Assembly: GCF_003334385.1 (NCBI RefSeq)
Contig: NZ_QOWN01000032.1
Reading direction: 5' to 3' (one strand)
DNA: 48,915 nt
From: Escherichia coli
GTDB lineage: Bacteria; Pseudomonadota; Gammaproteobacteria; Enterobacterales; Enterobacteriaceae
Shown here one piece after another: positions 5,613 to 9,843 of this stretch (position 1 is its first letter; each line of letters begins with the position of its first letter). The notes under the pieces are model-generated. The model had not been told where the DNA came from and searched no databases. It saw only the letters and a list, made by a program, of their open reading frames with translations. The position numbers and the translations under genes were made by a program.

Positions 5613-5636
5613 TTAACTAAACAAGGTTTAGTGAAG

Positions 5637-6830
5637 ATGAGAGCCTGCATTAATAATCAACAGATTCGCCACCATAACAAATGCGTGATTCTGGAACTGC
5701 TGTACCGGCAAAAGCGCGCCAATAAATCAACGCTGGCCCGGCTGGCGCAAATTTCGATTCCGGCAGTCAGTAATATTTTGCAGGAACTGGAAAGCGAAAA
5801 ACGGGTGGTGAATATTGACGATGAAAGCCAGACGCGCGGGCATAGTAGCGGTACATGGCTGATTGCGCCGGAAGGTGACTGGACGCTGTGCCTGAACGTG
5901 ACGCCCACCAGTATTGAGTGTCAGGTTGCTAATGCTTGTTTAAGTCCGAAAGGTGAATTTGAGTATTTACAGATTGATGCACCGACGCCGCAGGCGCTGC
6001 TGTCCGAAATCGAAAAATGCTGGCATCGCCACCGTAAATTGTGGCCGGACCATACCATCAACCTGGCGTTGGCAATCCACGGTCAGGTTGATCCTGTGAC
6101 CGGCGTGTCGCAAACCATGCCGCAAGCGCCGTGGACAACGCCGGTGGAGGTGAAATATCTGCTGGAAGAGAAGCTCGGCATTCGGGTGATGGTCGATAAT
6201 GACTGCGTGATGCTGGCGCTGGCGGAGAAATGGCAAAATAATTCGCAGGAACGGGATTTCTGCGTGATCAACGTTGATTACGGCATTGGCTCGTCGTTCG
6301 TGATTAACGAGCAAATTTATCGCGGCAGTTTGTATGGTAGCGGACAGATTGGTCACACCATCGTTAATCCGGATGGCGTCGTCTGCGACTGTGGACGTTA
6401 TGGCTGCCTGGAAACCGTCGCCTCGTTAAGCGCATTAAAAAAACAGGCGCGGGTATGGCTAAAATCACAACCGGTTAGTACTCAACTTGATCCTGAAAAA
6501 CTGACTACAGCGCAGTTAATCGCTGCCTGGCAAAGTGGAGAACCGTGGATCACCAGCTGGGTTGATCGCTCTGCCAATGCCATTGGTTTGAGTCTGTATA
6601 ACTTCCTCAACATCCTCAATATTAATCAGATTTGGTTGTACGGTCGCAGTTGTGCCTTTGGTGAGAACTGGCTTAATACTATTATTCGCCAGACAGGATT
6701 TAACCCGTTCGACCGCGACGAAGGACCGAGCGTGAAAGCGACGCAAATTGGCTTTGGGCAATTAAGCCGCGCACAACAGGTGCTGGGAATTGGCTATTTG
6801 TATGTTGAGGCGCAGTTACGACAGATTTGA
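5637..6830 (+). CDS. yphH: ROK/NagC-family transcriptional regulator (397 aa)
   Basis: ORF track (5631..6830; ATG at 5637 preferred to give 397 aa). N-terminal HTH and the ROK zinc motif CDCGRYGCLE. Confidence 0.9.
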   Translation: MRACINNQQIRHHNKCVILELLYRQKRANKSTLARLAQISIPAVSNILQELESEKRVVNIDDESQTRGHSSGTWLIAPEGDWTLCLNVTPTSIECQVANACLSPKGEFEYLQIDAPTPQALLSEIEKCWHRHRKLWPDHTINLALAIHGQVDPVTGVSQTMPQAPWTTPVEVKYLLEEKLGIRVMVDNDCVMLALAEKWQNNSQERDFCVINVDYGIGSSFVINEQIYRGSLYGSGQIGHTIVNPDGVVCDCGRYGCLETVASLSALKKQARVWLKSQPVSTQLDPEKLTTAQLIAAWQSGEPWITSWVDRSANAIGLSLYNFLNILNINQIWLYGRSCAFGENWLNTIIRQTGFNPFDRDEGPSVKATQIGFGQLSRAQQVLGIGYLYVEAQLRQI

Positions 6831-6890
6831 TGGCGCGATAACGTAGAAAGGCTTCCCGAAGGAAGCCTTGATGATCATAAACGAAAAATT

Positions 6891-6989
6891 GCCTGATGCG
6901 CTACGCTTATCAGGCCTACACGGAGATTGCAATATATTGAATTTGCAAAGTTTTGTAGGCCGGATAAGGCGTTCACGCCGCATCCGGCA
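6891..6989. repeat. BIME: two inverted REP units (GCCTGATGCGCTACGCTTATCAGGCCTAC ... GTAGGCCGGATAAGGCGTTCACGCCGCATCCGGCA)
   Basis: Palindromic REP consensus read directly; a near-identical copy lies at 37058-37155. Located in the convergent yphH/glyA gap. Confidence 0.75.
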
Positions 6990-7027
6990 TGAACAACGAG
7001 CACATTGACAGCAAATCACCGTTTCGC

Positions 7028-8281
7028 TTATGCGTAAACCGGGTAACGTGCGCAGATGTCGAGAACTTTACCTTTGATGCGCTCGATAACGGCTTCATCA
7101 TTGATGCTGTCCAGCACGTCACACATCCAGCCAGCCAGTTCTTTCGCTTCGGCTTCTTTAAAGCCGCGACGGGTAATCGCCGGAGTACCTACACGAATAC
7201 CGGAGGTCACAAACGGGCTCTTCGGATCGTTCGGTACGCTGTTTTTGTTGACGGTGATGTTAGCACGGCCCAGAGCGGCGTCTGCTTCTTTACCGGTCAG
7301 GTTTTTATCAACCAGATCAACCAGGAACAGGTGGTTATCAGTGCCGCCGGAAACCACTTTGTAGCCGCGCTCGAGGAACACTTCTACCATCGCTTTAGCG
7401 TTTTTAGCGACCTGCTGCTGGTAAGTTTTGAACTCAGGCTCCATCGCTTCTTTCAGAGCAACCGCTTTACCGGCGATTACGTGCATCAACGGACCGCCCT
7501 GACCACCAGGGAAAACGGCAGAGTTCAGTTTTTTGTACAGCTCTTCGCTACCACCTTTCGCCAGGATCAGGCCGCCGCGCGGACCCGCCAGGGTTTTGTG
7601 AGTGGTGGTAGTAACAACGTGAGCATGAGGAACCGGGTTCGGGTAGACGCCAGCAGCAACCAGGCCCGCAACGTGCGCCATATCAACGAACAGGTAAGCA
7701 CCGATGCTGTCAGCGATTTCACGCATTTTCGCCCAGTCCACCACGCCGGAATATGCAGAGAAACCACCGATAATCATTTTCGGCTTGTGTTCTTTGGCTT
7801 GTTTTTCCAGATCGGCGTAGTCGATATGACCGGTAGCATCGATACCGTAAGGAACGATGTTGTACAGTTTACCGGAGAAGTTAACCGGAGAACCGTGAGT
7901 CAGGTGACCGCCATGCGCCAGGTTCATACCCAGAACGGTATCACCTGGTTCCAGCAGCGCGGTGTAGACCGCAAAGTTAGCCTGGGAGCCGGAGTGCGGC
8001 TGGACGTTAGCGTAGTCAGCGCCGAACAGTTCTTTCGCACGATCGATCGCCAGTTGTTCAACGATATCAACATACTCGCAACCGCCGTAGTAGCGTTTGC
8101 CCGGATAACCTTCAGCATATTTGTTGGTCAGCTGAGAACCCTGCGCCTGCATTACGCGCGGGCTGGTGTAGTTTTCGGAGGCGATCAGTTCGATGTGCTC
8201 TTCCTGACGTACTTTTTCCTGCTCCATAGCCTGCCACAGTTCGGCATCATAATCGGCAATGTTCATTTCACGCTTTAACAT
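7028..8281 (-). CDS. glyA: Serine hydroxymethyltransferase (417 aa)
   Basis: ORF track (7028..8287; start taken at [12 protein letters not shown]). PLP-lysine motif [14 protein letters not shown]. Confidence 0.97.
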
Positions 8282-8559
8282 CCGCATCTCCTGACTCAGC
8301 TAACAATAAAATTTTTGGCCTTTATAGGCGGTCCTGTTGGACAACGGCGAACAGTATAACCGAATCATTGTGCGATAACAGGTCTTGACAAAGGAATTTA
8401 CGCAAACGATTACCTTCAGGCTACGCAAGGCTTTGGAGAATAAAGAGCTTGCAACCGGAAACGGATTTCTTTTCAGGTTTGTGATGCAAATTTTTCACTT
8501 CATCACATTCTTTCTGAAAAACACCAAAGAACCATTTACATTGCAGGGCTATTTTTTAT

Positions 8560-9799: not shown

Positions 9800-9805
9800 T
9801 TTGAT

Positions 9806-9831
9806 GTTGCCGGATGGAAACATCCGGCAAC
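9806..9831. terminator. Hairpin GTTGCCGGATG-GAAA-CATCCGGCAAC between convergent hmp and glnB; probable bidirectional terminator
   Basis: Perfect 11-bp stem read from sequence; the flanking U-runs are weak. Confidence 0.5.
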
Positions 9832-9843
9832 CCTTGACGCGGT

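Follow-up and report, generated by a model that had tools for sequence, protein, structure and literature searches.

Two stretches of about 100 bp in the window analysed here (the whole stretch of 48,915 nucleotides, to which E. coli K-12 is a 100% match, window position + 2,677,226 giving the NC_000913.3 coordinate) were read in a first-pass annotation as near-identical BIME (REP pair) copies, and they raise the question of which kind of repeat they belong to, how they came to stand where they do and what they may do to the genes around them. Copy A lies between the stop codons of a yphH-like ORF (5631-6830, + strand, stop 6828-6830) and glyA (7028-8287, - strand, stop 7028-7030), and copy B between those of srmB (35670-37004, + strand, stop 37002-37004) and yfiE (37213-38139, - strand, stop 37213-37215). 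Both gene pairs are convergent, the gene context being as the annotation had claimed, and an extragenic placement between the stop codons of convergent genes is one that suits BIME-1.

Anatomy of the repeat pair

Comparing the window with itself returned, as the longest repeat by far, 6879-7014 against 37045-37180 (136 nt ungapped, 86% identity), which reaches far past the 99-nt REP pair. Inside that pair, 6891-6989 and 37057-37155 are identical at 89 of 99 positions, so the description of two near-identical copies holds, save that the second had been started at 37058, one base off. The Z-type REP GCCTGATGCGCTACGCTTATCAGGCCTAC has two exact matches on the + strand, at 6891 and 37057, where shuffles are expected to give 0.00, and a chance similarity of the copies was rejected on this ground; exact matches to the Y REP GCCGGATGCGGCGTGAACGCCTTATCCGGCCTAC lie on the - strand (6955-6988, 37121-37154). 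The REP units, said to agree almost base for base, are in fact fully identical (30/30 for the Z1 REP, 35/35 for the Y REP), and within the 99 nt the differences do sit in the linker, where 25 of 35 positions agree and all 10 differences fall in the arms, around a fully identical 20-nt palindromic core (TGCAATATATTGAATTTGCA). The flanks agree at 12 of 20 positions on the left and 20 of 29 on the right. The repeated unit is thus larger than the REP pair, about 150 nt with conserved flanks and with similarity weakening outward, and a resemblance limited to the REP core is excluded by the 136-nt alignment, by the identities of the single segments and by an alignment of 72 family copies.

In copy A, this last alignment identifies the left flank motif (GATGATCATAAACGAAAAAT, 6870-6889, + strand) as a diverged form of the family left end GAGACTGATGACAAACGCAAAAT; a fuller left end of the element is retained at the glyA locus of E. 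albertii. The flank is followed by the Z1-type REP (TGCCTGATGCGCTACGCTTATCAGGCCTAC, 6890-6919, + strand, an exact pattern match), the L linker (6920-6954, palindromic core 6928-6947), the Y-type REP (6955-6989, - strand) and the right flank motif (TGAACAACGAGCACATTGACAGCAAATCA, 6990-7018, + strand), which ends 9 nt short of the glyA stop codon. On the - strand the Y REP reads TGCCGGATGCGGCGTGAACGCCTTATCCGGCCTAC, with a GTAG head and a 2-nt GC/TT mismatch in its stem. Adjoining the left end of the element is a terminator-type hairpin common to yphH and glyA (AAAGGCTTCCCGAAGGAAGCCTT, 6847-6869, folding at -14.6 kcal/mol), after which TTTCTACGTT stands on the - strand.

Copy B consists of the left flank motif (AAAGTGCTGGCAAACGCAAAAC, 37034-37055, + strand), the Z1-type REP (37056-37085, + strand), the L linker (37086-37120, core 37094-37113), the Y-type REP (37121-37155, - strand) and the right flank motif (TGAATAAAGCGCACTTTGTCGACAAGTTA, 37156-37184, + strand), with both REPs as exact pattern matches and both flanks drawn from the 72-copy alignment. 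The srmB terminator hairpin occurs twice around this 151-nt element, and only its distal copy has a T-run: the left one (AATGCCAGGTTTAAGCCTGGTATTA, 37009-37033, folding at -13.7 kcal/mol) is identical to the right one at 20 of 25 positions, and the right one, which with the T-run TTTTT spans 37185-37214 (AATGCCGGGTTTAATCCCGACATTA; hairpin 37185-37209), has one stem mismatch in this strain, its T-run being overlapped by the yfiE stop codon.

The annotation had also dismissed as spurious two ORFs of similar sequence (6816-7019 and 36892-37149). Each lies on the - strand and contains RRERLIRPT...CKFNIL...RPDKRSASG, and they are indeed read-throughs of the repeat. Two ORFs with shared peptide stretches could be taken for a duplicated protein-coding gene, a reading whose probability we regard as negligible: the shared stretch coincides exactly with the repeat, but the starts, lengths and ends of the ORFs differ, the ORFs overlap the terminator hairpins and the srmB 3' end, look-alikes arise in other frames too (6868-7008 and 37010-37162), and the sequence is that of a multi-copy non-coding element. 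The protein-coding reading was accordingly rejected, the ORFs being artefacts of translating the repeat.

Class and family of the elements

Nunvar et al. (2010, PMC2817692) and Ton-Hoang et al. (2012, PMC3333891) describe BIME-1 as a single z1 + y unit whose long, conserved L linker often carries an IHF site, and BIME-2 as z2 + y with a short linker, repeated in tandem; they also list the long Z form with rayT-flanking BIME-2. In the literature BIME-2 is the class with strong gyrase binding and cleavage, and IHF is the partner given for BIME-1. Set against this REP and BIME anatomy, both window copies show a Z1 REP, an L linker and an inverted Y REP. They are BIME-1, with a left flank, a Z1 REP, a 35-nt L linker whose 20-nt core is identical, an inverted Y REP and a right flank, one unit at each locus, the outer flanks being recognisable though diverged between the two. 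The short Z form is taken as Z1 because all 72 copies with an L linker have a short Z and BIME-1 is defined as z1 + y. With BIME-2 the copies share REPs in alternating orientation and an intergenic location, whereas that class has a longer Z2 REP joined to Y by short variable S linkers, forms tandem arrays and is the strong gyrase target. Single units are not an absolute rule of BIME-1, since Escherichia sp. E1V33 has tandem units at srmB/yfiE and at gcvP/ygfF.

The class reportedly goes also by the names RIB, from Boccard and Prentki in 1993, and RIP, from Oppenheim et al. in the same year, and the window copies differ from it in nothing essential, apart from outer termini that have diverged from the family consensus. 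They are therefore of an already known kind, catalogued repeats of the best-studied bacterial genome that add nothing new themselves; what is added here are the counts of strain variation at both loci and an association, seen across the family, between the element and terminator hairpins that occur in duplicate. A published table names neighbouring elements REP185, REP187 and REP189, and on this numbering the two copies are probably the EcoCyc entries REP186 and REP188. The window also holds single REP-like hairpins downstream of the hmp stop codon (9801-9835, TTGCCGGATGGAAACATCCGGCAA) and at a gene junction (40226-40262, ATGCCGGATGGCAGAGTTGCCACCCGGCTGAT), which the table gives as REP187 and REP189, within bidirectional terminators. 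The far end of the window (48751-48915) holds a single, degenerate REP of the long-Z form (GTGGGAGTATAAGACGCGCAGCGTCGCATCAGGCA), then a T-run and a strong hairpin (AAAAAGGCCATCCGTCAGGATGGCCTTT), and beyond these a sequence that by eye resembles the last part of a - strand 5S rRNA gene and runs off the window.

Gyrase and IHF had both been proposed in the annotation as binding partners of the elements. Of the two, IHF is the likelier, being the partner named in the literature for BIME-1, and strong gyrase cleavage is a BIME-2 property. Because the elements are BIME-1, the partner expected from the sequence for the L linker is IHF rather than gyrase: on the - strand the linker core reads ATTCAATATATTG, agreeing at 12 of 13 positions with the IHF consensus WATCAANNNNTTR (6930-6942 in copy A; the 13-mer of copy B lies at 37096-37108, - strand, within the L linker), and a strict consensus search found no perfect match inside either element. 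That the elements are instead gyrase-binding repeats of BIME-2 type, setting a topological barrier between transcription units that converge, would fit the build-up of positive supercoils at convergent junctions and the gyrase binding reported for REPs in general. We nevertheless consider it very unlikely, as strong cleavage belongs to tandem z2 + y repeats with short linkers, but the window copies are single z1-L-y units, and IHF-occupied sites correlate negatively with gyrase sites genome-wide.

Two Rfam models align to the elements, RF02751 ES036 (CssrF) to the L linker of both copies and RF02564 naRNA4, a REP-derived family, to the Y REP, the match being partial in copy A. The 43-nt ES036 model scores 49.9 bits on copy B (37078-37120, - strand), above its gathering score of 37.6, and 34.2 bits, just under that score, on copy A (6912-6954, - strand). 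Taken at face value, the higher score would make copy B, and perhaps copy A, an independent small-RNA gene on the - strand of the linker, yet a model that spans only the L linker and the first REP bases models the repeat itself and would match every BIME-1; a simple promoter scan found no promoter-like site at either locus, and short RNAs from these places are more simply seen as decay intermediates of 3'UTRs protected by REP hairpins. A dedicated gene of this kind is highly improbable, and ES036 and naRNA4 are better regarded as RNA-family models built on REP/BIME pieces, a match to which denotes membership of the repeat.

Two inverted REPs able to pair into one long hairpin are likewise found in the REPINs mobilised by RAYT (YafM/TnpAREP). 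TnpAREP needs a GTAG head, a 2-nt stem mismatch and an inverted neighbour REP with CT cleavage sites (PMC3333891), and in the window copies both REPs show in their sequence the head and stem mismatch that the enzyme demands in vitro, with GTAGGCC... heads on both strands, the GC/TT mismatch of the Y stem and GGCC|TAC (CT) sites. The rayT (yafM) gene itself is located outside the window.

For the family, GTDB representative genomes were scanned with an 18-nt pattern from the linker core, which gave at least 120 stretches; among the matches listed, about 80 have REPs on both sides, their hosts including E. albertii, E. whittamii, Escherichia sp. E1V33, Pseudocitrobacter and two divergent 'E. coli' species representatives. 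Linker-core matches in unrelated taxa came without REPs and were therefore set aside as chance matches. Complete E. coli-type BIME-1 copies also stand on very short contigs (261-720 nt) of Desulfosporosinus (L013), Methylobacterium (L098) and Alkalicoccobacillus (L096) and on a Bacteroides MAG contig of 6,179 nt (L010), all four being probably enterobacterial contamination of the assemblies.

The family thus sampled has at least 72 copies in Escherichia and Pseudocitrobacter, and every aligned copy combines the short Z form with Y. Across the 72, about 22 nt on the left side (consensus GAGACTGATGACAAACGCAAAAT) and about 30 nt on the right (TGAACAAAGCGCACTTTGTCAGCAATCTG) are conserved as well, with columns at 60-80%; these outer flanks presumably correspond to the motifs that Gilson et al. 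reportedly named A and B in 1991. In the core TGCAATATATTGAATTTGCA both window copies are identical to the family consensus, a conservation that within this sample arises by construction, since the sample was picked by a pattern from the core. Sixty-one sampled copies with enough flank reduce to 46 distinct loci among the matches listed, over which the ends of BIME-1 are sharp (GAGACTGATGAC...GTCAGCAATCTG) and the modal length is 151-152 nt. The family ends GAGACTGATG and CAGCAATCTG are inverted-complementary at 7 of 10 positions, and predicted folds show the flanks paired; in the window copies these ends have degenerated, the termini of both having more than 3 mismatches from the consensus.

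Transcripts across the elements

The annotation had looked to a yphH transcript at copy A. The carrier is rather that of glyA, because one RNA-seq table puts glyA some 90-fold above yphH in abundance (baseMean 16629 vs 177) and because the glyA stop codon stands on one side of the element and the only terminator-type hairpin at copy A (6847-6869) on the other, the element taking up with 6870-7018 nearly all the space between the two. Copy A would therefore be transcribed within the 3'UTR of glyA, and its presence would move the hairpin away from the stop codon, from a distance of about 24 nt to one of about 158 nt. From the stop codon to the end of the U-stretch we count about 186 nt, in agreement with the 185-nt 3' untranslated region with REP sequences that Plamann and Stauffer are said to have described for glyA. 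Copy B is likely transcribed in the 3'UTR of srmB, since only the distal copy of the hairpin has kept the U-run. We infer the transcript ends at both loci, because a simple terminator scan called nothing at either of them in this strain, or in the glyA allele that lacks the element; with two T's taken up by its stem, the glyA hairpin falls short of the T-count that the scan requires.

Both RNAs are predicted to fold strongly, the glyA-sense RNA of copy A at -79.4 kcal/mol (z = -6.8 vs shuffles) and the srmB-sense RNA of copy B at -78.1 kcal/mol (z = -5.0). Once transcribed, such very stable REP stem-loops could block 3'-to-5' exonucleases and attenuate read-through, and as DNA the L core, to judge from its likeness to the consensus, would bind IHF and be bent by it. 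Published work describes REPs as blocks to 3' exonucleases and as partial, sometimes Rho-dependent attenuators, with effects that depend on context, and reports a higher average expression for convergent gene pairs with a REP between them; a 2026 preprint finds terminal REPs not generally linked to longer mRNA half-lives, again with context-dependent effects. Any effect at the two loci would be modulatory and not essential, because about one third of E. coli genomes do without copy B and about two thirds without copy A. Taken as a whole, the explanation that these are BIME-1 copies at convergent junctions, which would be transcribed in 3'UTRs, act there on exonucleases and read-through and receive IHF as DNA, appears to us highly probable. 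Their presence alters the 3'UTR architecture of glyA, which is very highly expressed, and of srmB/yfiE, and it varies between common E. coli lineages, so that nature provides paired alleles for the effects of BIME-1 on termination and mRNA decay.

Strain variation and duplicated terminator hairpins

When 2-kb queries around the two junctions were compared with complete E. coli genomes, many of these gave a split match that lacked 134 nt at glyA or 176 nt at srmB. Junction-specific queries found the filled glyA junction in 1709 and the empty one in 3400 of 5426 complete genomes, and the filled srmB/yfiE junction at >=95% identity in about 3700 records, the rest giving paralogous matches only. 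Both copies are therefore presence/absence polymorphisms and not fixed features. A further 317 of the 5426 genomes match neither the filled nor the empty yphH/glyA query, which points to at least one more allele at this junction.

The empty glyA allele reads ...GGAAGCCTT-TTTTCAACAGATTAA-CCGTTTCGC..., the 149-nt element standing in place of the 15 nt TTTTCAACAGATTAA. The hairpin at 6847-6869 is kept in filled and empty alleles alike, with TTTTTT next on the + strand in the empty one. A derivation of TTTTCAACAGATTAA from the right end of the element was considered and dropped, as a match of about 10/17 proves nothing. Simple excision does not account for the empty allele. E. albertii and one divergent Escherichia have the element at this glyA position too and share its right junction, which means that the filled allele is either old or has passed between species. 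In E. coli BHD6 (L003:890-990) the Y REP of the glyA copy has five stem-weakening substitutions, the Z1 REP and L core being intact, and is an example of decay in place.

At srmB the empty allele has a single hairpin and then a T-run (CAATGCCGGGTTTAAGCCCGGCATTG TTTTTATCC), and its hairpin with TTTTTAT was called as an intrinsic terminator, the only one of the window and empty alleles to be so called, set against the two hairpins around copy B. Alleles with 0, 1 and 2 units have 1, 2 and 3 hairpins at this junction, where Escherichia sp. E1V33 (L106:2288-2715) has the order hairpin-element-hairpin-element-hairpin. The same genome has two tandem units of hairpin and BIME-1 at gcvP/ygfF (L101:1660-2090), where E. 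coli ws5-3 has one unit, and at agp/yccJ K-12 and O157 have one hairpin (CTCCCCCGCGAGAAGCGGGGGAG) against hairpin-element-hairpin in E. whittamii and one E. coli strain.

Across the family, the element lies at 20 of the 46 loci between direct, not inverted, repeats of a locus-specific GC-rich stem-loop of 15-35 nt (AATGCCGGGTTTAAGCCCGGCATT is an example of a terminator hairpin), as against 3 of 87 displaced control windows (Fisher p = 1.7e-8), with repeat scores of 11-35 vs a maximum of about 9-11 for shuffled flanks. About 20 nt separate the end of the left hairpin copy from the Z1 REP, and about 30 nt the Y REP from the start of the right copy; many of these loci have an A-run before the left copy and a T-run after the right one. 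Duplicated hairpins are seen, besides those at 37009-37033/37185-37209 in the window, at L106, L115, L130, L101, L132, L065, L045 and L123 among others; the last of these has no E. coli orthologue, and the uvrB/yvcK locus (L071) has a complex pattern. At most loci lacking the duplication a strong hairpin adjoins one side of the element, as at copy A.

The duplication of the hairpin suggests that BIME-1 integrates at terminator hairpins. More specifically, we tentatively propose, at rather less than an even chance, that BIME-1 is a discrete MITE-like element of about 152 nt that inserts at the base of intrinsic-terminator hairpins and copies the entire stem-loop in the process. Integration would yield, in order, an A-run, the hairpin, the element, the hairpin and a T-run, and transcripts arriving from either side would cross the element before meeting a hairpin and U-run. 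Insertions would thus be nearly harmless and would place the element in 3'UTRs, and later recombination between the hairpin copies would give both losses and tandem gains. As the length of the duplication is that of the hairpin, cleavage or template switching would be directed by DNA structure and not by a fixed stagger; staggered nicks, of a polarity that HUH/Y1 chemistry would allow, at both feet of an extruded hairpin, or template switching at the folded hairpin are two speculative routes. Y1 transposases of the IS200/IS605 type, to which RAYTs belong, have been described as making no target duplication, so that the hairpin-length duplication at 20 of the 46 loci would be unexpected from their chemistry.

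The polymorphism also bears on whether the host gains anything from the elements, which could be neutral or selfish passengers, MITE-like insertions tolerated at harmless terminator positions. This is what one might conclude from the absence of each copy from a large share of the 5426 genomes, from the decayed Y REP of BHD6 and from the outer termini of both window copies, so far from the consensus; insertion beside terminators with duplication of the hairpin would moreover minimise harm. On the other side, REPs and L core are 100% identical between the copies when flanks and linker arms are at 60-70%, which argues for constraint on, or homogenisation of, REPs and core; the glyA copy is common to E. 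albertii at the same junction and so has persisted long, and the literature reports expression effects of REPs in 3'UTRs. We therefore judge an existence without any host benefit to be possible but unlikely, and retain BIME-1 copies with a probable modulatory role in 3'UTRs as the preferred explanation.

With classical MITEs, BIME-1 has in common its small size, a near-palindromic structure, the occurrence of filled and empty alleles and, at many loci, flanking direct repeats, and its imperfectly inverted ends (GAGACTGATGAC / GTCAGCAATCTG) may be a further likeness. MITEs make a fixed duplication of 2-10 bp, whereas that of BIME-1 is a whole locus-specific stem-loop of variable length (15-35 nt) and copy A has none; a 2011 review saw no MITE signatures in REPs. 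As to the choice of target, an analogy exists, and in that respect only, with a different type of mobile DNA. Bacterial group II introns of class C go in directly behind intrinsic terminators, with the terminator hairpin as a safe landing site, but they are retroelements with their own RNA and protein machinery and do not duplicate the hairpin.

At gcvP/ygfF, E. coli IGC_EcoliInv_1.1 (L133:215-470) carries, at the exact BIME-1 point and right after the gcvP hairpin, a GC-rich element that is a common allele there. Similar to BIME-1 in its termini (AGTCAGATGACAAAG...CAGTTTGTTAGCAATCTC), it precedes a second, decayed hairpin copy and looks like the boxC repeat. An element of that type with similar termini at the same point hints that the termini, and not the REPs, define the mobile unit.

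The REP, RAYT and REPIN papers and reviews with which we compared these results hold no mention of a flanking hairpin duplication; primary BIME-1 papers of the 1990s, among which Bachellier et al. reportedly wrote in 1997 of 'excisions of a whole BIME-1', may describe one, and we claim no priority. The insertion mechanism of REPs and BIMEs is given as unknown in a 2026 preprint. If the hairpin duplication is a true footprint of insertion, it offers a concrete and testable target structure for this process.

Elsewhere in the window, gathering-level Rfam matches mark the sRNA GlmY (13967-14114, - strand), the antitoxin RNA ohsC (23294-23370, + strand), the rncO leader (26783-26997, - strand) and the antisense RNA AsrC (29780-30611, + strand). 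A 23-nt direct repeat (23043-23065 and 23291-23313, identical at 22 of 23 positions, 248 nt apart) has its second copy adjoining the ohsC match.
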